Virus record (IMG/VR): IMGVR_UViG_3300045988_130114
Span: 1 to 64,000 of that record
DNA: 64,000 bases
Origin: a virus
Strand: one strand, 5' to 3'
Position numbers and translations under genes: made by a program. Under the pieces are notes generated by a model, which worked only from the letters and a program-made list of their open reading frames with translations, was not told where the DNA came from and ran no database searches. Shown here piece after piece: positions 3,439-25,954 of the stretch. The stretch's first letter is position 1; every line of letters starts with the position of its first letter.

Positions 3439-4092
3439 ATGGAAACGGAATTATTTAAAAACAAGACAATGAGTTCGCTTGAGATTGCCGAACTTACAAG
3501 CAAACAACACGCCCATGTTATGCGTGATATTCGCAATCTATTATCACAAGGAGTAGCCGAATCCAATTTTGGATTGGCGGAATATTCGGATAATCAAGGG
3601 AAACCAAGACCATGTTTCAATCTCACCAAGAAAGGTTGTCTGATCCTCGCATCCGGCTACGACGCAGTACTCCGTGAAAAAATTATTGATCGCTGGGAAT
3701 CCCTCGAAACAGGTAAGGCTGAACCTATGGCTAAACAGTCTCTTACTCCTTCCGAGCTTATTCTCCAACTTGCGCAATTCAACGTTGAGAATGAACGTAA
3801 GATGAAGGCTTTGGAAAGCAAGCAGGAACAAATGCAAGCGGAGATTGAGGAAATCAAGCAGCGTACTACCACGGACCTGCACCAATCCACAATCGTAGCC
3901 TACATATCAAGAAACAGTATCAAACTGGATGTCTCACGCTACGGAGCGATGGGACGGAAAGCGTCAGCTCTCTGCAAGAAACGCGGTGTTGAGCCGACAA
4001 AAATCCATGATGTCCGTTGGGGAACAGTGAAAGTTTACCCCGATGAGATACTTGATGTTGTTTTTGGAATGGGGATTTCAAATATAAACTAA
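3439..4092 (+). CDS. Rha-family phage regulatory protein
   Basis: ATG 3439. MSSLEIAELTSKQHAHVMRDIRNLL matches the Phage_pRha N-terminal motif. The C-terminal module is shared with 8511-8915. Confidence 0.75.
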   Translation: METELFKNKTMSSLEIAELTSKQHAHVMRDIRNLLSQGVAESNFGLAEYSDNQGKPRPCFNLTKKGCLILASGYDAVLREKIIDRWESLETGKAEPMAKQSLTPSELILQLAQFNVENERKMKALESKQEQMQAEIEEIKQRTTTDLHQSTIVAYISRNSIKLDVSRYGAMGRKASALCKKRGVEPTKIHDVRWGTVKVYPDEILDVVFGMGISNIN

Positions 4093-17781: not shown

Positions 17782-18627
17782 ATGAAGATGCAATCTAAGA
17801 TAGATTATTCCATAGCCTTACTTCGTAAATGCGAACAGATGGCACTTGATTATGACCCGGAGGATGGCTTTTACTTAGCGTTCTCCGGTGGCAAGGATAG
17901 CCAAGTCCTTTATCACCTTGCGAAGATGGCAGGAGTAAAATTTAAGGCTCACATGAACCTTACGAGCATCGATCCACCCGAAGTTATCCGCTTTGTAAAA
18001 CGGAACTACCCGGATGTGGAATTGATTAAACCAAAGATGTCTATCTATGATATGGCTTTAAAAAAACACTTATTACCTACAAGAACAATCCGTTGGTGTT
18101 GCGCTGAATATAAAGAGATGTCCGGTGCTGGCAAGGTTACCTTGATTGGCATTAGAAAAGCAGAAAGCGTCCGGCGCTCTAAGCGTGAAGAGATTGAAAT
18201 AAGCGGTCACAAATTTAGCGGCAACTTCGACCAATTCTCTGAACACAAAGAAAAGATGGTTACTTGCGTGGGAGGAAAGGATAAGATACTTGTTTCTCCG
18301 ATAATTCACTGGACTGATAGGGACGTATGGCAGTTTTTGAATGGGAATAGCATAGAGCATTGCTCGTTGTATGATGAAGGCTATAAGCGCATCGGATGTA
18401 TTCTCTGCCCAATGTCTAACTATAAGCAGAAGTTAAAAGATTATCAGCGCTTCCCCCATGTGAAACGTAAATGGATTCAGACCATACAAAAGTTGATTGA
18501 TGCCGAATATGTCAACCACAACTTTACCGATGCAGAGTTTGGCTTTTATTGGTGGATAAGCGATAAAGGTTTTGACCAATATTATGCAGACGAAGTACTG
18601 CAACAGAAAATAGAGTTTAACGTATAA
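17782..18627 (+). CDS. PAPS-reductase/DndC-like PP-loop protein (intact paralogue)
   Basis: AFSGGKDSQ, RWCCAEYK, GIRKAESVRR, SPIIHWTDRDVWQFL, YKRIGCILCP. Confidence 0.85.
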   Translation: MKMQSKIDYSIALLRKCEQMALDYDPEDGFYLAFSGGKDSQVLYHLAKMAGVKFKAHMNLTSIDPPEVIRFVKRNYPDVELIKPKMSIYDMALKKHLLPTRTIRWCCAEYKEMSGAGKVTLIGIRKAESVRRSKREEIEISGHKFSGNFDQFSEHKEKMVTCVGGKDKILVSPIIHWTDRDVWQFLNGNSIEHCSLYDEGYKRIGCILCPMSNYKQKLKDYQRFPHVKRKWIQTIQKLIDAEYVNHNFTDAEFGFYWWISDKGFDQYYADEVLQQKIEFNV

Positions 18628-20187: not shown

Positions 20188-20481
20188 ATGGGATTTACAA
20201 CACCATGTTTTATTAGAAAAAACACTGAAAGATTAAGAGAGTCTTTGAAACGTTTAGGGATTAGACCACTTCTTTCTAATGAAAGATTAAATGCTATTGG
20301 AGACAACATTAAAGTATATCATGGGAGAGAAGCCGTTTTCTCTTGCTCCTATTCGCAGGAATTATATGGACATTTTCTTGATTGCGGGACAAATGAAAAT
20401 TTATTTCTTGCTATTGCCGCATTAAGAGATGACACAGACCATAAAATACCTTCAACATGTGGCACGAGACAGACCATATGA
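20188..20481 (+). CDS. hypothetical protein
   Basis: ORF track. Confidence 0.45.
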   Translation: MGFTTPCFIRKNTERLRESLKRLGIRPLLSNERLNAIGDNIKVYHGREAVFSCSYSQELYGHFLDCGTNENLFLAIAALRDDTDHKIPSTCGTRQTI

Positions 20482-20554
20482 TGAAATGTAACAAGGTTGA
20501 GACAATAAAATCATCAAATTAGATAAATTTATGACTAAAAGTGACACTTTATAT

Positions 20555-20573
20555 GTCATATTTTGTATCTTTA
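20555..20573 (+). promoter_or_regulatory. phage promoter motif GTCATATTTTGTATCTTTA (+CACC)
   Basis: Same 19-nt register as the late motif; AAAAGTGACA box at 20537-20546. Confidence 0.45.
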
Positions 20574-20597
20574 CACCATAAAAATAAAAAAAGAGCA

Positions 20598-21002
20598 ATG
20601 AAAATTTACACAAGTTATTTCGGTAATAGCCGAAAATTAAAAGAAGCAGGAATTAAAATTATTTGCGTAGCTATTGGACGGCCAAGATTTATTAGTGGAG
20701 TACCACAAATGGTTAATGTGGCTCCAACAAGGTATATGATAAGTGCCGCATGTTCCCATGATGAGTATCTTAGATTATACAACAATATTCTTGAAAGTCA
20801 AGATGCGAAGAAGGTGGTGGAGCAAATAAAGACATTAAGTGATGGCCAAGATGTTGCTCTATGCTGCTATGAGAAACCAGGTGATTTCTGCCATCGCCAC
20901 ATACTTGCAAAATGGCTTACCGAAAAGACTGGCATTGAAATCAAAGAGTTTGGAGTTGTTGAAAAGAAAGAACCTAAGTATGAACAAGCAAGTTTGTTCT
21001 AA
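20598..21002 (+). CDS. DUF488-like protein
   Basis: ATG 20598; C-terminal ALCCYEKPGDFCHRHILAKWL resembles the DUF488 C..CHR motif. Confidence 0.4.
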   Translation: MKIYTSYFGNSRKLKEAGIKIICVAIGRPRFISGVPQMVNVAPTRYMISAACSHDEYLRLYNNILESQDAKKVVEQIKTLSDGQDVALCCYEKPGDFCHRHILAKWLTEKTGIEIKEFGVVEKKEPKYEQASLF

Positions 21003-21088
21003 AGATATGTGTGAGGCTTTTTATGGTTATGGATACACACGTCAATTGAAAACGGAAACCATTGGCAGCTTGGAATAGACAAGCAAAA

Positions 21089-21161
21089 GGTTGAATGGCG
21101 AAGTGATTAACGCAACGGTCCGCAAAACCGTTATTCGTGGGTTTGAATCCCACTTCAACCT
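21089..21161 (+). tRNA. tRNA-Cys(GCA)-like, deviant
   Basis: Hand-folded cloverleaf: acceptor GGTTGAA/TTCAACC, anticodon stem ACGGT/ACCGT, loop CCGCAAA, T arm GTGGG-TTTGAAT-CCCAC, discriminator U73. Deviations: C33, no GG in the D loop, T at position 56. Confidence 0.65.
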
Positions 21162-21237
21162 CAAAGATAGAAATAACAACCGAAGTACAAGGCGATACTG
21201 TGGATTTTCTAATAAACGTTTTACAGACAGCCATATT

Positions 21238-21308
21238 GCGGAAATAGCTCATTGGTCAGAGCGTTGGCATTCCAGCCAAAGAGTGGGGTTCGATTCCCTG
21301 TTTCCGCT
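21238..21308 (+). tRNA. tRNA-Gly(UCC)-like with a 6-nt anticodon loop
   Basis: Acceptor GCGGAAA/TTTCCGC (C2:G71, G3:C70, U73), D arm GCTC-ATTGGTCA-GAGC, T loop TTCGATT. The anticodon stem TTGGC/GCCAA encloses only ATTCCA. Confidence 0.65.
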
Positions 21309-21425
21309 CGAATGTCGTTCAAGCTGGCTGGTTGATTGGTATTATGGTAGATGTGCATAGTTCGATTTTATGCGTTACTCTGGTATCGGTCAATCTTACA
21401 GCGTGGGAAGACATGCAAATTTGTT

Positions 21426-21592
21426 GGTGGTATGGCGTAATTGGTATACGCTAATCAAGATGTAAGGTGCAAAATTCCAGGATAACCGTTAATAACCAAA
21501 CCGGAAACCTGCGAGACATCTTAGGAATGACTGAATTAAAAATCAGAAAGCCGCAAAAACTCCACCTGCAGGTTCGAATCCTGCTGCCACCA
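21426..21592 (+). ncRNA. 167-nt RNA closed by tRNA acceptor, D and T arms with about 95 nt of extra internal sequence
   Basis: Acceptor GGTGGTA/TGCCACC, TG, D arm GCGT-AATTGGTAT-ACGC, T arm GCAGG-TTCGAAT-CCTGC; internal 7-bp helix AAGATGT/ACATCTT (21457-63 / 21516-22). Confidence 0.5.
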
Positions 21593-21596
21593 CTAA

Positions 21597-21785
21597 GAGA
21601 TAAAATGGTCATAGGGCGCTAAGACTAAATGAACGGAAATTCTAAGTGTACATAAGAATGGATGTCATCAAGACCGGTGCTGTTAGTAACAGGTTGAGTA
21701 GTTTAAAGATCGTAGGATAGCCAATCTACGGACGAAAGCGAGAAAGCAGACGATACTTGTGCAGGTTCGACTCCTGCTTATCTCT
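21597..21785 (+). ncRNA. 189-nt RNA closed by a tRNA-like acceptor stem and canonical T arm
   Basis: GAGATAA/TTATCTC (7/7 bp) next to T arm GCAGG-TTCGACT-CCTGC; internal hairpins at 21607-26, 21680-92 and 21711-30; no normal-length tRNA fits. Confidence 0.4.
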
Positions 21786-21894
21786 CAATGAAGAAATGGT
21801 TGATTTTGTATTTAAGCCTTCCTGGAATACGCCAGGAGGGCATTAAATCTAAATTAGTGTATGAAGTCATACATAACTTGTAAAATATACTGAT

Positions 21895-23196
21895 ATGTTC
21901 CAAGGAACGACACCACCTGAAGTAAAACTGCTCCTTCAAGATATAATGAAAGGCGTAGAAAAGAAAGATGTTTTTATCGGATGTTCCGGTAATTTCACGA
22001 CCGACAAAATTATGTCCAACATGGGATATACTGTACATTCCAATGATGTAAGCCTATATTCTAAGCTAATTTCTGATCTGCTGCTTGACACAAATACAGA
22101 TATTGAAGTTGTAAATCCTGAATTACGTCTGGTTTTTGATACTTGGAAAGATACAAGATATAAAAATCTTGTTCAGGTAATGTTTGCCATGAGAGTATCA
22201 GGCTTTCATCAAAGAAAGAATGATTATCAGGAGGAAATGTTCAATTCGTTTATAGAGCAGGCTGACATTTATTATCACAATACCATATCGAAATTAGAAA
22301 AGGGTGCTTTGAATTTTAATATAAGCAGTTTCTTTTATGGCGATTTTTTTGACTTCCTAAAAAGTAAAAAAGGTAAGGGGATAGGTATTGCTTTTCCTCC
22401 CACTTATAAAGGAGGATATGAGAAGATGTTTAGCTATGTAGAAGATAGTTTTAGATATGTTCATGCTCCCTATAATGTATTTGACCCCAAAGAAGGTGGG
22501 GTGATGTTTAAATGTCTTCTTGAGAATGATGAAAACATCATCTATTCTGATAGATATTTCCAGGAAATAAACGACTTCCTTGTTGGTAAGATAAACTTGG
22601 GGCCTGGTAAGAATCCGATATACACTTATTCTAGTGTAAAGCGGGATAAGCATTATTACATTGAACGTGATAAAAATATAAAGCCATCATGTATTCATAT
22701 TTTGCCAATGGATTATGAATTTACAGATAGCACAGAAATATCAGCAAAGATATGCCCAGTTAGTGATGTGAACTACTATAAAGCATTTTACATGGCAAAT
22801 AAGGTTAACTATACAACTGGTGGGGACTTGGGATTGGTATTCATGGCTGATGGAAAAGCGTTCGGTTTTTCTTCTTTTAGCAAAAAACTTTCTACTCTTG
22901 AGCAGATTTTTATGCGAAGCGATTTTGTTGTAAACTCAAATACTCAGAGATTGAGTAAATTATTGATCATGCTTGTTAAGTCTCATAATGTAAGAATGCT
23001 GATTGCCCGAAAAATGGCTAACTACTACGATGGAGTGAAGACTACCGTGTACACAACAAGCCCAATTTCAATGAAATATAGAGGAGTATTTGATTTAGAA
23101 CGCCGAGATGAAGGCAAGCTAATGTATTCTGCTAATTTTTTAGATGATTCATTAAAGGATTTATATAGATTATGGTTGAAAAAATACAAGAAGTGA
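21895..23196 (+). CDS. methyltransferase-like protein (weak call)
   Basis: 433 aa; VFIGCSGNF (motif I-like) and AFPPTYKGGYE (DPPY-like); overlaps the ParB-like gene. Confidence 0.4.
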   Translation: MFQGTTPPEVKLLLQDIMKGVEKKDVFIGCSGNFTTDKIMSNMGYTVHSNDVSLYSKLISDLLLDTNTDIEVVNPELRLVFDTWKDTRYKNLVQVMFAMRVSGFHQRKNDYQEEMFNSFIEQADIYYHNTISKLEKGALNFNISSFFYGDFFDFLKSKKGKGIGIAFPPTYKGGYEKMFSYVEDSFRYVHAPYNVFDPKEGGVMFKCLLENDENIIYSDRYFQEINDFLVGKINLGPGKNPIYTYSSVKRDKHYYIERDKNIKPSCIHILPMDYEFTDSTEISAKICPVSDVNYYKAFYMANKVNYTTGGDLGLVFMADGKAFGFSSFSKKLSTLEQIFMRSDFVVNSNTQRLSKLLIMLVKSHNVRMLIARKMANYYDGVKTTVYTTSPISMKYRGVFDLERRDEGKLMYSANFLDDSLKDLYRLWLKKYKK

Positions 23197-23936
23197 AAGA
23201 TGTTCATCTTATTCAGGGGAAACTGGATGATGTAAACAAGTTGATTGCTCCATATAAGTTAGCATATGTAAGCCCTATAAACGATTGTGTTCCGTTGGAG
23301 AAGAATGCTCACTATATGGAAAAAAGCACACTAGATAGACTAACAGCAAATGTGGCTGAAGACGGTTTTTTATCTCAGCTCCCGTTTGCAATGAAACGAA
23401 ATGACGGTAAATATCTCATTTTGTCGGGAAATCATCGCTTAAAAGCTGCTATTAAAGCTAAGTTGGAATATATTCTAATCTTGTATATTGAAGAGGTTGA
23501 TAAAGATAAGCAGATTGCCTATGTGCTTAGTCATAATGCTTTAGTAGGCAAAGATGATGCTCAGATGCTTAAGGAGATTTATAGCGAGATGCGCACTATT
23601 GAAGCAAGAGAGTTTCCTGGTCTTAACGGCATTCAATTTATTGATACGGATAAGATTCCCACGGTCTCTATTAATGATGGGGATATAGAGCTTACCGAAA
23701 TGAAGTTCTTGTTTACTGAAAGCAGGAGCAATGATGTCAAAGCTGTTCTAGCGGAACTAGAAAAACAGAAAATATCTGCAAATAGTTCGATAGTTGTCGG
23801 CTCCTATGAAGAATTTATTAAGGTAGCTACAGAGGTTAAGAAAAAATTTAATATAAAAAGTAATACGGTGGCTTTTGCACGTATGATTGATATTTGCAAA
23901 GCCTTTTTGCTTGAACTGAAAGAAGAGGAGGTATAA
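23172..23936 (+). CDS. ParB/Srx-fold nuclease-like protein
   Basis: YLILSGNHRLKAAIKA (GxHR motif). Confidence 0.7.
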   Translation: MVEKIQEVKDVHLIQGKLDDVNKLIAPYKLAYVSPINDCVPLEKNAHYMEKSTLDRLTANVAEDGFLSQLPFAMKRNDGKYLILSGNHRLKAAIKAKLEYILILYIEEVDKDKQIAYVLSHNALVGKDDAQMLKEIYSEMRTIEAREFPGLNGIQFIDTDKIPTVSINDGDIELTEMKFLFTESRSNDVKAVLAELEKQKISANSSIVVGSYEEFIKVATEVKKKFNIKSNTVAFARMIDICKAFLLELKEEEV

Positions 23937-23937
23937 T

Positions 23938-24429
23938 ATGGCAGGGAGAGGTAGGCCCAAAATGGAGATTTCTCTTTATGATAAATATATAAAAGGGAAG
24001 GAAGATCTTATTATAGCAGACTGTAGGAATGGGGCTGACAATAAAGGTTTATGTGTGCGTCTTGGAATAGGACTTACTACGTTCAAAAGTATACTAAAGA
24101 AACATCCTGAAGTTATAGATTTGTTGAAGGAAGGTAAAGACGAAGCCGACATGAAGGTAGAGAGTGCTCTATATAAACGAGCTATTGGCTATGATATTGA
24201 GGAAACTACAACTGAGGTGAAAATAGGAGAGGATGGATCTGGTCAAACGACTGTGGTAAAGAAAACGAAAAAGCATGTCGCGGGAGATACAACAGCACAA
24301 ATATTTTGGTTAAAAAATCGTAGACCAAATGAATGGAAAGATAAACAAGATGTAAATGTTACTAATGATGATTGGGTAGATGCTTTAAAATCATTAACCA
24401 GTTCATATAAGAATGGTGACAAAGGATGA
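23938..24429 (+). CDS. terS: terminase small subunit
   Basis: ALYKRAIGY...TTAQIFWLKNRRPNEWKDKQ; immediately upstream of, and overlapping, the large subunit. Confidence 0.8.
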   Translation: MAGRGRPKMEISLYDKYIKGKEDLIIADCRNGADNKGLCVRLGIGLTTFKSILKKHPEVIDLLKEGKDEADMKVESALYKRAIGYDIEETTTEVKIGEDGSGQTTVVKKTKKHVAGDTTAQIFWLKNRRPNEWKDKQDVNVTNDDWVDALKSLTSSYKNGDKG

Positions 24430-25954
24430 AAAAAAGAAACTCATAAGTGAAATTATAGCGTATTGGTCGAAGGATTGGAATAAATTTGTCCGTGATGCAT
24501 TATGCGCAAGATTAGATCGTGAGCAGCAAGCTATTATTGAGTCTGTCCAACATAACCCCATGACTGCTGTTGCAAGTGGAACTGCTCGTGGAAAAGATTT
24601 TGTTGCGGCCTGTGCTTCGTTGTGTTTTATGTATCTTACTCCTAGATTTAATGAAAAAGGTGTGCTTGTTGGGAATACCAAGGTGGCCATGACAGCACCA
24701 ACAGGGAGGCAAGTGAAAAATATTATGACTCCTGAAATCAGAAGGTTGATTCGTGCAGCAAGGGCAAAGTTTCCTTTTTGTTGTCCAGGCAGATTGGTTG
24801 CTGATGACATAAGAACGGATTATGAAGAATGGTTTTTGACAGGATTTAAAGCAAATGACAACGCAACTGAATCATGGTCGGGATTTCATGCAGCAAATAC
24901 CATGTTTGTTATCACGGAGGCATCAGGTATATCCGAAATTGTTTATAATGCGATAGAAGGTAACTTACAGGGAAATTCTCGGATGCTCATAGTGTTTAAT
25001 CCTAATATTACTACTGGATATGCATCTAGAGCCATGAAATCAGAACGTTTTGCTAAGTTTAGGCTTAGTTCTCTTAATGCGGAGAATGTGGTAAAAAAAC
25101 AAGTTATAATTCCAGGTCAAGTAGATTATGAATGGGTAAAAGACAAAGTAATAAATTGGTGCTCTCCCATTCAGCAAACGGACTTTAATGAGGGAGAAGG
25201 CGATTTCAAATGGGAAGGTAGCCTATACCGACCTAATGATTTATTTCGAGTTAAGGTACTTGGTATGTTCCCAAAAGTTTCTGAAGATGTACTTATACCT
25301 TATGAATGGATAGAGATAGCAAACAGGAATTGGCAAGAATTACAAGCAAACGGTTTCATTCCTGTTAAATCTTGCAAGTTAGGGGTTGACGTTGCCGGTA
25401 TGGGACGAGACAATAGTGTGCTTTGTCCGAGATATGGAAACTATATTACTCAATTTGAAGTGCATCAATCTGCTGGACGTGCGGATCACATGCATGTAGT
25501 AGGTATGACAATACCATATTTAAAGAAGAAGGGAGCAAAAGCATTTATTGATACGATAGGAGAGGGTGCAGGTGTCTATTCTCGTTTGTTGGAGGAAGAA
25601 TTTACAAATGCTTTTTCATGTAAATATTCAGAAGGTGCGGATGGATTGCATGATATTACCGGAGAATATGAATTTGCCAATATGCGAGCATATTTGTATT
25701 GGGCTTTGCGTGATTGGCTCAATCCTAAAAATGGATTTGGTGCAGCTTTACCCCCATGTGATCAGTTGATGGAAGAAGCGACTGAAACTAAATGGAAGTT
25801 TCTTAGTAATGGAAAGATTATCATTGAGGCTAAAGAAGACATCAAAAAACGTATCAAGCGTTCTCCTGACTATATGGATGCATTAGCGAATACATTCTAT
25901 CCTAGGGATTACAGCTTTATTAGCGATGAAGAGCTGCTCAAAGATTTTTTGTAG
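24413..25954 (+). CDS. terL: terminase large subunit
   Basis: 513 aa; ATPase-like ASGTARGKDF and nuclease-half motifs LGVDVAGMGRD / IDTIGEGAG; position before the portal. Confidence 0.85.
   Translation: MVTKDEKKKLISEIIAYWSKDWNKFVRDALCARLDREQQAIIESVQHNPMTAVASGTARGKDFVAACASLCFMYLTPRFNEKGVLVGNTKVAMTAPTGRQVKNIMTPEIRRLIRAARAKFPFCCPGRLVADDIRTDYEEWFLTGFKANDNATESWSGFHAANTMFVITEASGISEIVYNAIEGNLQGNSRMLIVFNPNITTGYASRAMKSERFAKFRLSSLNAENVVKKQVIIPGQVDYEWVKDKVINWCSPIQQTDFNEGEGDFKWEGSLYRPNDLFRVKVLGMFPKVSEDVLIPYEWIEIANRNWQELQANGFIPVKSCKLGVDVAGMGRDNSVLCPRYGNYITQFEVHQSAGRADHMHVVGMTIPYLKKKGAKAFIDTIGEGAGVYSRLLEEEFTNAFSCKYSEGADGLHDITGEYEFANMRAYLYWALRDWLNPKNGFGAALPPCDQLMEEATETKWKFLSNGKIIIEAKEDIKKRIKRSPDYMDALANTFYPRDYSFISDEELLKDFL

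Follow-up and report, generated by a model that had tools for sequence, protein, structure and literature searches.

Why does a tailed phage carry, within one gene-free interval, two odd tRNA genes and two longer RNAs with tRNA-like ends? This question is raised by a 64,000-nucleotide (nt) stretch of viral DNA, positions 1 to 64,000 of IMG/VR record IMGVR_UViG_3300045988_130114, here called the window. The interval, or "island", covers positions 21003-21894 on the + strand and is the gap between the open reading frame (ORF) of a DUF488-N3a protein and that of a protein with a DAM-like and a phage GNAT-like domain (the DAM-like/GNAT gene). A preliminary description made from the letters alone had considered that the two long RNAs, RNA_A and RNA_B, might represent a new class of tRNA-like noncoding RNA, and the comparison with relatives bears this out: they are two conserved, covarying families absent from Rfam 15. 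Moreover, in five lineages, with protein identities of 49-100%, the gene immediately before the DAM-like/GNAT gene is a tRNA-Gly. We regard it as about an even call that the island is a + strand array composed of an accessory tRNA-Cys, a tRNA-Gly that serves as glycyl donor and two expanded tRNA-like RNAs that act as mimics.

Two families of long RNAs with tRNA-like ends

RNA_A (family V1) is 167 nt long (21426-21592, + strand) and scores 193.6 bits against the model of its family. It had been read as a tRNA 5′ half and a tRNA 3′ half set around a 7-bp long-range helix, and each of these parts is found. The acceptor strands GGUGGUA and UGCCACC pair at 7/7 positions (21426-21432 with 21585-21591). 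The 5′ half also has U8 and a Leu-type D arm with its GG (GCGU-AAUUGGUAU-ACGC, 21435-21451), and the 3′ half has the T arm (21568-21584) and an A at the discriminator position (A73; 21592); the CCA is not encoded. In the interior, the 7-bp helix P1 (AAGAUGU/ACAUCUU, 21457-21463 with 21516-21522) and the helix P2 (21475-21481 with 21508-21515) are followed by an anticodon-like hairpin, CUGA-AUUAAAAA-UCAG, at 21531-21546. RNAalifold and a covariance model give the order acceptor, D arm, long arm, small (anticodon-like) hairpin, 20-nt A-rich linker and T arm. The long arm consists of P1, which is invariant among 23 distinct sequences, an internal loop (11 nt, conserved) and two covarying distal helices (CAGG/CCUG, CAUG/CAUG and CAAG/CUUG; CCG/CGG, CAG/CUG and CCU/AGG). 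The invariant U-G pairs, for example in P2, are valid only on the + strand, which is therefore taken as the transcribed strand of RNA_A. A possible pseudoknot between the internal loop and the 3′ linker (GGUG/CACC) was assessed by eye; it shows no covariation and one sequence breaks the pairing. A pairing of UUGGU in the D loop with an apical ACCAA was dropped, being uncompensated in variants.

RNA_B (21597-21785, + strand, 189 nt) is identified by its acceptor closure, its T arm and its covarying family. The 7/7 acceptor-like stem beside a canonical T arm, noted in the preliminary description, is confirmed: GAGAUAA (21597-21603) pairs with UUAUCUC (21778-21784) next to the T arm at 21761-21777. 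AA stands in place of U8. The interior holds a D-like arm with GG (21606-21627), a covarying hairpin arm (21629-21668), a long-range helix (21669-21682 with 21747-21759) and, within the latter, the hairpin CGUAGG-AUAGCCAA-UCUACG (21711-21730), the loop of which is the same as in some RNA_A members. Around the long-range helix, RNA_A and RNA_B have short motifs in common (AUCAAGA ... GCGAGA), and the RNA_A model scores RNA_B weakly, at 14-25 bits. RNA_B also exists as a 156-nt variant in which part of the interior is replaced.

For a single sequence, such closure is unremarkable: a 7/7 closure (G-U allowed) within ~400 nt upstream of a T-arm-like hairpin has a chance estimate of 0.375^7 x 400, or ~0.4. 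The folding z-scores of the single sequences are also weak, only -2.78 for RNA_A and -0.32 for RNA_B. The case for the long RNAs therefore rests on their relatives, which were counted from exact-word scans of IMG/VR. An interior 16-mer of RNA_A retrieved 75 stretches with ~66 true homologues, most of which lie in phages not related to the window, away from any tRNA gene. Their eight different acceptor stems are all complementary, and their T stems differ too. The interior is the best conserved part, with 88% identity to GenBank MT838892, where the flanks have no match. Among the 23 distinct sequences aligned, 95.5% of the cells are paired and 15 of the 37 pairs show double changes; the covariation score is 0.351, compared with 0.088 in shuffles (reached in 0/500) and ~0.05 with slid partners. 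For RNA_B, a 17-mer scan gave 70 stretches and 68 complete copies, all but one clearly homologous. Here the acceptor stems vary yet pair (GAGAUAA, GGGAUAA and GGGACAA), and eight pairs, some in the hairpin arm at 21629-21668 and some in the T stem, show double changes, compared with 0-1 in slid controls; the structure came from this very alignment and is thereby favored in the comparison. In both long RNAs, covariation among homologues, the check to which the preliminary description had pointed, is seen in the acceptor, T and internal helices.

The small hairpin of RNA_A links the family to tRNA-Leu. Its stem covaries (CUGA/UCAG, AUGA/UCAU, AUAA/UUAU, CUGGU/ACCAG and CUGUU/GACAG), and several lineages have CUUAAAA or UUUAAAA as its loop, as is canonical around a Leu UAA anticodon. 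In others the loop is CUUGAAA, an 8-nt sequence (AUUAAAAA in the window, elsewhere AUUAGAAA or CUUAAAAA) or AUAGCCAA. The anticodon-like loops, together with the Leu-type D arm and A73, indicate that RNA_A descends from tRNA-Leu. Three features speak against plain decoding: a stem of only 4 bp, loops of 8 nt and, on the same body, loops that are not of the Leu type. In E. coli, tRNA-Leu identity depends on A73 and the Leu-type D arm and elbow, and the anticodon is not read by leucyl-tRNA synthetase (LeuRS). By these rules, RNA_A has LeuRS-type features (A73, A14, G18G19 and a D arm of the tRNA-Leu type), and A73 is kept in 23/23 V1 sequences in the model alignment. It is possible that RNA_A is leucylated by LeuRS. 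One homologue (L124, 10496-10662) has the D loop AAUGAAAG without GG, the T loop UUUAAAU and the anticodon-like loop CUUGAAA. In this single RNA_A case, a possible tertiary covariation of G19:C56 to A:U would mean that the elbow pair was lost with compensation; the tRNA-Cys of the window has the same combination of a missing GG and U56.

Neither long RNA corresponds to an RNA class that we searched for. Rfam, at gathering thresholds and at E<=10, gave no family and no tRNA match for RNA_A or RNA_B, and ARAGORN with tmRNA and intron options did not call them at default thresholds. The earlier idea of intron-containing tRNAs could not be upheld: no group I intron or other family is found at E<=10, and the insert, which in RNA_A measures 79-95 nt and lies between the D arm and the anticodon-like hairpin, 5′ of that hairpin, is outside the anticodon loop and better conserved than the tRNA-like ends. 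When relaxed (90% threshold, introns allowed), ARAGORN reports the window RNA_A as "tRNA-Leu(taa)" with a 79-nt intron; this model was rejected, as the anticodon stem that it needs fails in relatives with 7-nt loops and the competing local hairpin covaries. The long RNAs resemble tmRNA in being large, closed by an acceptor stem and a T arm, and structured inside. However, instead of G3:U70, RNA_A has a U-A pair at position 3:70 and RNA_B a G-C pair, there is no tag reading frame, ARAGORN -m returns 0 genes, and the Rfam tmRNA model, which has a threshold of 47 bits, recognizes nothing but the 17-nt T arms, with scores of 9-10 bits. A coding role was also rejected, given that overlapping ORFs are short and that substitutions compensate in helices. 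We found no description of RNA_A or RNA_B in the literature; they may be among the 10,006 viral candidate RNAs catalogued in PMC10690425. Judged from their sequences, they appear to be two related, previously undescribed families of "expanded tRNA-like RNAs".

The ends of these RNAs also enclose other interiors. In the clade of the window, at least seven unrelated interiors of 122-222 nt lie within the same Leu-type ends and score 29-48 bits with the RNA_A model. Variant V3 (in L004) is accepted by the Rfam tRNA model at 40 bits, with a 65-nt insert replacing the anticodon arm, and keeps a variable-arm-like hairpin. Variants V5-V7 (L009, 3193-3335; L013, 3070-3194; L120, 55-276) have the acceptor GAUACAG, the T loop UGCAAGU and cargos of 125-222 nt; the helix GAUAGG/CCUAUC beside the T arm is common to them. 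A usable anticodon arm is missing from RNA_B and from variants V2-V7. In a different phage lineage, a single site with identical flanks (...GGCGAACAU[RNA]CAUAAAUGUGAGCCACAC) holds either RNA_A or RNA_B; the two behave as alternative cassettes. Deletion chimeras in five loci (L002, L003, L006, L010 and L011, at ~3465-3590) have the body of a V3 RNA but take their T loop and 3′ acceptor strand from RNA_B, which breaks the acceptor pairing. Moreover, the last module, whichever it is, always has the same sequence after it (U|CAACCC...). On account of these chimeras and of this common sequence, it seems that recombination between T arms is what adds and removes the cassettes. In many genomes, they have been lost.

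A tRNA-Gly beside the DAM-like/GNAT gene

The Gly(UCC)-like tRNA of the preliminary description (21238-21308, + strand), with its Gly identity elements and 6-nt anticodon loop, is supported by both Rfam and ARAGORN. It scores 54.0 bits and so passes the RF00005 gathering score (29 bits) even though the loop has 6 nt, and ARAGORN lists it as "tRNA-??? anticodon (tc)", which corresponds to the 6-nt loop. The anticodon arm, UUGGC-AUUCCA-GCCAA (21264-21279), can also be drawn with 4 bp and an 8-nt loop. The odd loop is present in 55/58 upstream sequences, the window included, with C-G as the closing pair in 42, U-G in 11 and C-A in two. As the odd-size arm is conserved in independent assemblies, a sequencing error is ruled out. 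The tRNA has G1:C72, C2:G71, G3:C70, U73, C35 and C36, the identity set for glycyl-tRNA synthetase (GlyRS), and its loop should probably exclude it from normal decoding.

The tRNA-Gly accompanies the DAM-like/GNAT gene beyond the clade of the window, in which it has the 6-nt loop. Distant loci were searched for with a 20-sequence profile of the protein. At 64% protein identity (L256) the loop is CAUCCAG, with A33; at 62% (L258-260) the gene is a canonical Gly CCC; at 60% (L262) the arm C-AUUCCA-G is found on a different D/T backbone, a gene missed by default ARAGORN; and at 49% (L273) a canonical Gly UCC ends ~36 nt before the start codon. The tRNAs of all five lineages keep G1:C72, C2:G71, G3:C70 and U73, and the GlyRS set including C35 and C36 is complete in the window gene, L256, L258, L262 and L273. 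Among distant homologues (49-73% protein identity), any tRNA within ~0.4 kb upstream of the gene is a tRNA-Gly. Codon supply fits this linkage poorly because the CCC anticodon reads the rare GGG (11% of the Gly codons of the phage) and the 6-nt loop recurs on two backbones. The attention that the preliminary description gave to the Gly-like gene is thus warranted, given its link to the DAM-like/GNAT gene.

The DAM-like (PF22555) and phage GNAT-like (PF22559) protein has 433 aa (21895-23196, + strand) and is the proposed user of the Gly-type tRNA. The protein model (mean pLDDT 85.8) has a methyltransferase-like N-terminal domain, in which the DPPY-type motif (D/N/S)PP(Y/F/W) is replaced by FPPTY, invariant in the family. 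This replacement suggests that the DAM-like domain may bind adenine without methylating it. The C-terminal domain is predicted, by its modeled structure and Foldseek, to have a GNAT fold; its beta4-alpha3 loop has no glycine-containing motif and reads ...FVVNSNTQRLSKL.

A biochemical parallel is offered by phage Mu. Silva et al. 2026 showed that Mu Mom, itself a GNAT, transfers glycine from Gly-tRNAGly to the N6 of adenine in double-stranded DNA, and that it accepts all tRNAGly isoacceptors and rejects Gly-tRNAAla (PMC13219725). The window has a GNAT-fold enzyme, predicted to act on DNA adenine, encoded beside a tRNA-Gly that keeps the GlyRS identity elements. In this model, host GlyRS would charge the Gly-type tRNA, which would then be the dedicated glycyl donor for the adjacent enzyme; the enzyme would aminoacylate the N6 of adenine in phage DNA, as in Mom chemistry, and the decoding-blocked loop would reserve the charged tRNA for it. 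The domain logic, that is, a GNAT fused to a DAM-like domain, and the tRNA-Gly linkage make a Mom-like mode of action the best available hypothesis; the lack of a glycine-containing motif in the beta4-alpha3 loop of the GNAT fold adds indirect support. There are differences from Mu: the GNAT here is PF22559 and is fused to a DAM-like domain with FPPTY, and the tRNA is phage-encoded with a 6-nt anticodon loop. Escape from anticodon nucleases is an alternative reason for the loop; phage tRNAs with altered anticodon loops are reported to evade such nucleases (PMC10264068).

A tRNAGly kept out of translation has a counterpart among bacteria. Dedicated tRNAGly species that avoid translation serve cell-wall synthesis by Fem transferases in Staphylococcus, and the proposed donor resembles them in this respect. 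Such non-proteinogenic tRNAGly are cited as precedent in PMC13219725.

Weighing the explanations

In the array that we favor, the RNAs would probably be matured together by the host, with 5′ ends generated by RNase P, 3′ trimming and CCA addition; the short spacers (4 nt from RNA_A to RNA_B) and the lack of an encoded CCA are the reasons for this proposal. RNase P, the 3′ trimming activities and the CCA-adding enzyme recognize the acceptor/T-arm half together with the elbow. The top half of the long RNAs, that is, the 7-bp acceptor, U8 (AA in RNA_B), the D arm with GG, the T arm UUCGAnU and usually A73, would give processing, stable ends and tRNA-like recognition. The conserved multi-helix cargo that takes the place of the anticodon and variable arms would display a look-alike of an anticodon stem-loop, of the Leu UAA type or with AUAGCCAA. 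The body of these RNAs probably cannot decode. With modest confidence, we propose that they mimic tRNA and engage a host factor directed at tRNAs; the most plausible form of this is a decoy for defense nucleases that target anticodons. Mimicry is favored by the anticodon-loop look-alikes, by the swapping, which is like that of counter-defense genes, and by the altered loops of the neighboring tRNAs (compare PMC10264068). Leucylation of RNA_A by LeuRS, genuine decoding by the versions with a 7-nt loop, and a handle that carries an unrelated cargo are the chief alternatives to mimicry. The tRNA-Cys(GCA), with C33 in its anticodon loop, would be an accessory decoder.

Several observations weigh against this reading of the island. 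Most RNA_A and RNA_B homologues lie in other phages, surrounded by NinB, NinG, VRR-NUC and replication genes, and neither a GNAT nor a tRNA enzyme is encoded close to them; when their surroundings in other phages were searched for a conserved protein partner, only NinB, NinG (also with an intein), VRR-NUC, DUF3268, DUF4494 and replication genes came up. The discriminator is not invariant, being U in RNA_B (21785) and in one V2 copy. Antisense targets within the window were limited to chance-level 11-13-mers. Many DAM-like/GNAT homologues have no adjacent tRNA, DUF488 then abutting the gene, and the phage tRNA-Gly is therefore at most facultative. Profile comparison (hhalign, 20 sequences) with Mu Mom gave a probability of 0.06, that is, no profile relationship, a phmmer search against PDB sequences gave no match, and Foldseek returned generic GNATs only, with Mom missing from the top 50 matches; as there is no detectable homology to Mom, we place the GNAT domain outside the Mom family. 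Furthermore, GGA makes up 38% of the Gly codons and TTA+TTG 46% of the Leu codons of the phage, and codon supply is thus a possible reason for genes of the Gly(UCC) and Leu(UAA) types.

Codon supply is also part of an unlikely alternative, in which RNA_A is a working, five-armed tRNA-Leu(UAA) that is charged by LeuRS, decodes UUA/UUG, and either supplies a heavily used codon or resists a nuclease that cuts host tRNA-Leu. Its extra long arm would leave the core near position 26, beside the exit of the type II variable arm. The Leu-type D arm and A73, the canonical 7-nt loops Y-U-UAA-A-A on covarying stems in several lineages, the relaxed ARAGORN call and the share of TTA+TTG all agree with such a tRNA. 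However, the loop has 8 nt in the window copy and in two other lineages, and CUUGAAA (a Ser anticodon) or AUAGCCAA on the same scaffold would misread. Moreover, the hairpin stem has 4 bp and lies ~80 nt from the D stem, no variable-arm hairpin is present, RNA_A falls below the Rfam tRNA threshold, and RNA_B and V2-V7 have no usable anticodon arm. We also think it rather unlikely that the tRNA-like ends are only a handle for processing and stability, with cargos that are regulatory RNAs or aptamers unrelated to tRNA biology, after the model of engineered "tRNA scaffolds", T4 RNA C and the herpesvirus TMERs. The many unrelated cargos on one scaffold, the exchange of cassettes, the better conservation of cargo than of ends and the lack of a conserved protein partner nearby would all be expected from a handle. 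Yet the full D arm and elbow are conserved, beyond what end protection needs, anticodon-like loops recur, and complementarity to the phage genome does not exceed chance.

Two further alternatives are very improbable. Altered anticodon-loop size can shift the reading frame, and the preliminary description had therefore suggested frameshift suppression by the Gly-like tRNA; in its wider form, this tRNA (6- or 8-nt loop) and RNA_A (8-nt loop) would be frameshift-promoting or quadruplet-decoding tRNAs for programmed recoding. The 8-nt loops do fit N-N-[NNNN]-A-N, giving UUCC, UAAA, UAGA and AGCC, and ARAGORN assigns a 2-base anticodon to the Gly-like tRNA. But the large genes of the window are all uninterrupted ORFs, the DAM-like/GNAT gene keeps its colinearity whether or not a phage has the tRNA, and the same RNAs have 7-nt loops in relatives. 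Frameshift suppression thus finds no support: the same C-AUUCCA-G loop occurs on two tRNA-Gly backbones, and a tRNA-Gly stands beside the same gene in five lineages whether its loop is canonical or deviant and whether its anticodon is UCC or CCC, which argues for a link to the enzyme rather than for recoding. The other, already disfavored, is that the long elements are functionless: pseudo-tRNAs in decay, remnants of attP or recombination, or tRNAs into which an intron or a mobile insertion has entered. It would account for the chimeras between T arms that break acceptor pairing (L002 type) and for the loss of cassettes in many genomes. However, compensatory changes occur in every helix and P1 is invariant, an unrelated phage contig with unmatched flanks has a copy of RNA_A at 88% identity, and no group I/II match is found, the inserts being too short and not in the anticodon loop.

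Beyond the array reading, we tentatively put forward a broader possibility, less likely than the array itself: that gut Bacteroides phages have a toolkit of non-decoding, tRNA-derived RNAs. It would comprise a private glycyl-donor tRNA-Gly, incompetent in translation and selected for its 6-nt anticodon loop, that serves a new DAM-like/GNAT enzyme aminoacylating DNA, and a superfamily of 120-220 nt RNAs with an aminoacylatable Leu top half and exchangeable cargos, anticodon-loop mimics among them, acting as amino-acid carriers or as decoys against immunity directed at tRNAs.

Genomic setting, precedents and significance

The island is a mosaic across 57 related IMG/VR loci, which were retrieved with the downstream DAM-like/GNAT protein. 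The Gly-like tRNA is its constant member, found in nearly all of these loci, and between it and the downstream gene there are 0-5 further modules. The first slot is variable; relatives have tRNA-Phe(GAA), tRNA-Ser(GCU) or nothing, and the window has the tRNA-Cys(GCA) (21089-21161, + strand; Rfam tRNA 61.1 bits, ARAGORN Cys(gca), U73). Its anticodon loop is CCGCAAA (C33), its D loop, AGUGAUUAA, lacks GG and its T loop is UUUGAAU (U56); Rfam, ARAGORN and alignment thus agree with the C33, the missing G18G19 and the T56 recorded in the preliminary description.

Between the Gly-type tRNA and RNA_A lies a "mid" module (21309-21425, + strand), with two hairpins that have T-loop-like loops (GUCG-UUCAAGC-UGGC, 21314-21328, and CAUAG-UUCGAUU-UUAUG, 21356-21372) and a leader hairpin, GCGUG-GGAAGA-CAUGC (21401-21416), 9 nt 5′ of RNA_A. 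Among relatives, a T-like stem of this module covaries (AAAGG/CCUUU, CAAGG/CCUUG and CAUGG/CCAUG); no acceptor-type closure was found within 21309-21425. The RNA_A genes of unrelated phages are likewise preceded by a hairpin, 5-9 nt upstream. At the other end of the island, the leader of the DAM-like/GNAT gene (21786-21894, + strand) has two conserved hairpins, at 21816-21841 and 21857-21874, both of which change compensatorily in relatives (GCCUUCCUGG...CCAGGAGGGC vs GCCUGUCGGG...CUCGGCAGGC); they could be the terminator of the RNA array or a regulatory 5′ untranslated region.

Two further elements were seen in relatives. "Element X" is a conserved, structured, noncoding element of ~135 nt (CAACCCUUAUAGUAGCGAUAAGC...GCAAGUAGCUUG) with the long-range pairing GCAAGAACA/UGUUCUUGC, found in L023 (3778-3915), L043, L014 and others and without a match in Rfam. 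It is absent from the window and in most relatives sits between the last tRNA-like gene and the DAM-like/GNAT gene. At ~3650-3720 of L004, inside a ~300-nt insertion missing from the window, there is a mini tRNA-like element of ~66 nt (GGGCGGUG...UCGGGUUCAAAUCCCGUCCGUCCU), with an acceptor, a T arm and one 7-bp hairpin and no D arm. In addition, an RNA_A-bearing phage (L092, 3276-4610) encodes, ~1 kb downstream of RNA_A, a NinG-like protein with an intein (Hint/Intein_splicing); its cluster, intein-free copies included, is present in 39 loci.

The window has the genes of a tailed phage (terminase, portal, major head and tape-measure), a GC content of ~37% and nearly every gene on the + strand. 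The DUF488-N3a protein that borders the island (20541-21002, + strand) is the conserved upstream neighbor of the DAM-like/GNAT gene, and the order DUF488-N3a, DAM-like/GNAT, ParB_N-like, small ORF and large terminase (20541-25954) is kept to ~50% identity (L283, L284 and L286). Genes for a PAPS-reductase-domain protein (17782-18627) and a weak ParB_N-domain protein (23172-23936) flank the island region; the pairing of these two domains is usually tied to phage DNA modification. Searches for a close isolated phage found none for the window. Screening 185,579 reference genomes with a specific RNA_A pattern gave matches only in two contigs of metagenome-assembled genomes (MAGs) of "uncultured Bacteroides sp.", and homologues of the neighboring protein carry names from Barnesiella, Paludibacter and Chlorobiaceae. 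Based on the MAG matches and these names, the host is probably a member of Bacteroidales, and the window would come from a gut phage, probably one of Bacteroides. The Bacteroides-type -7 box (TAnnTTTG) is absent from 20400-22000, and sigma-70-like matches are at chance level, so that no promoter is assignable.

Among known RNAs, T4 RNA C is the closest precedent. T4 RNA C (species 1, 139 nt) and RNA D (species 2, 119 nt) are two stable, longer-than-tRNA RNAs in tandem after the last tRNA of a phage cluster, and RNA C has a canonical T arm (CCGGG-UUCGAAU-CCCGG) beside its closing stem as well as long internal hairpins. The analogy lies in position and architecture. There is no sequence similarity; RNA C lacks a D arm and has an interrupted closing stem, and RNA D lacks a T arm, whereas the present RNAs retain the complete Leu-type top half and belong to large families in which cargos are swapped. 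To our knowledge, the function of RNA C and RNA D is still unknown. The type II tRNA-Leu is similar in its 7-bp acceptor, U8, D arm (GCGG-AAUUGGUAG-ACGC), T arm and A73, some RNA_A members have the CUUAAAA or UUUAAAA loop, and V3 passes the Rfam tRNA threshold. In contrast, in RNA_A ~80 nt of conserved structure separates the D stem from the anticodon-like hairpin, that hairpin has a 4-bp stem and, in the window, an 8-nt loop, there is no variable-arm hairpin, and the RNA stays below that threshold. As to defense, T5 tRNAs are reported to act against PARIS and retrons (PMC11464382 and PMC11555353). The non-canonical loops here, with C33 in Cys and A33 or a 6-nt loop in Gly, are reminiscent of the nuclease-evading phage tRNAs (PMC10264068); those tRNAs still decode, whereas the 6- and 8-nt loops and the replaced arm here go further.

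For the biology of these phages, the findings bear on two matters. Well over 100 contigs of human-gut phages carry one of two widespread structured RNA families that lie outside Rfam and are invisible to tRNA finders. They show that a tRNA top half can act in nature as a scaffold for swapped RNA cargos, and they give the long-unexplained RNA C of T4 a large, comparable set of conceptual relatives. The linkage of tRNA-Gly to the DAM-like/GNAT gene is, in our view, the most testable new lead. It carries the newly discovered tRNA-dependent DNA hypermodification, known from Mom, over to another, unrelated family of enzymes as a prediction that can be tested, and it suggests why some phages carry a single odd tRNA gene.

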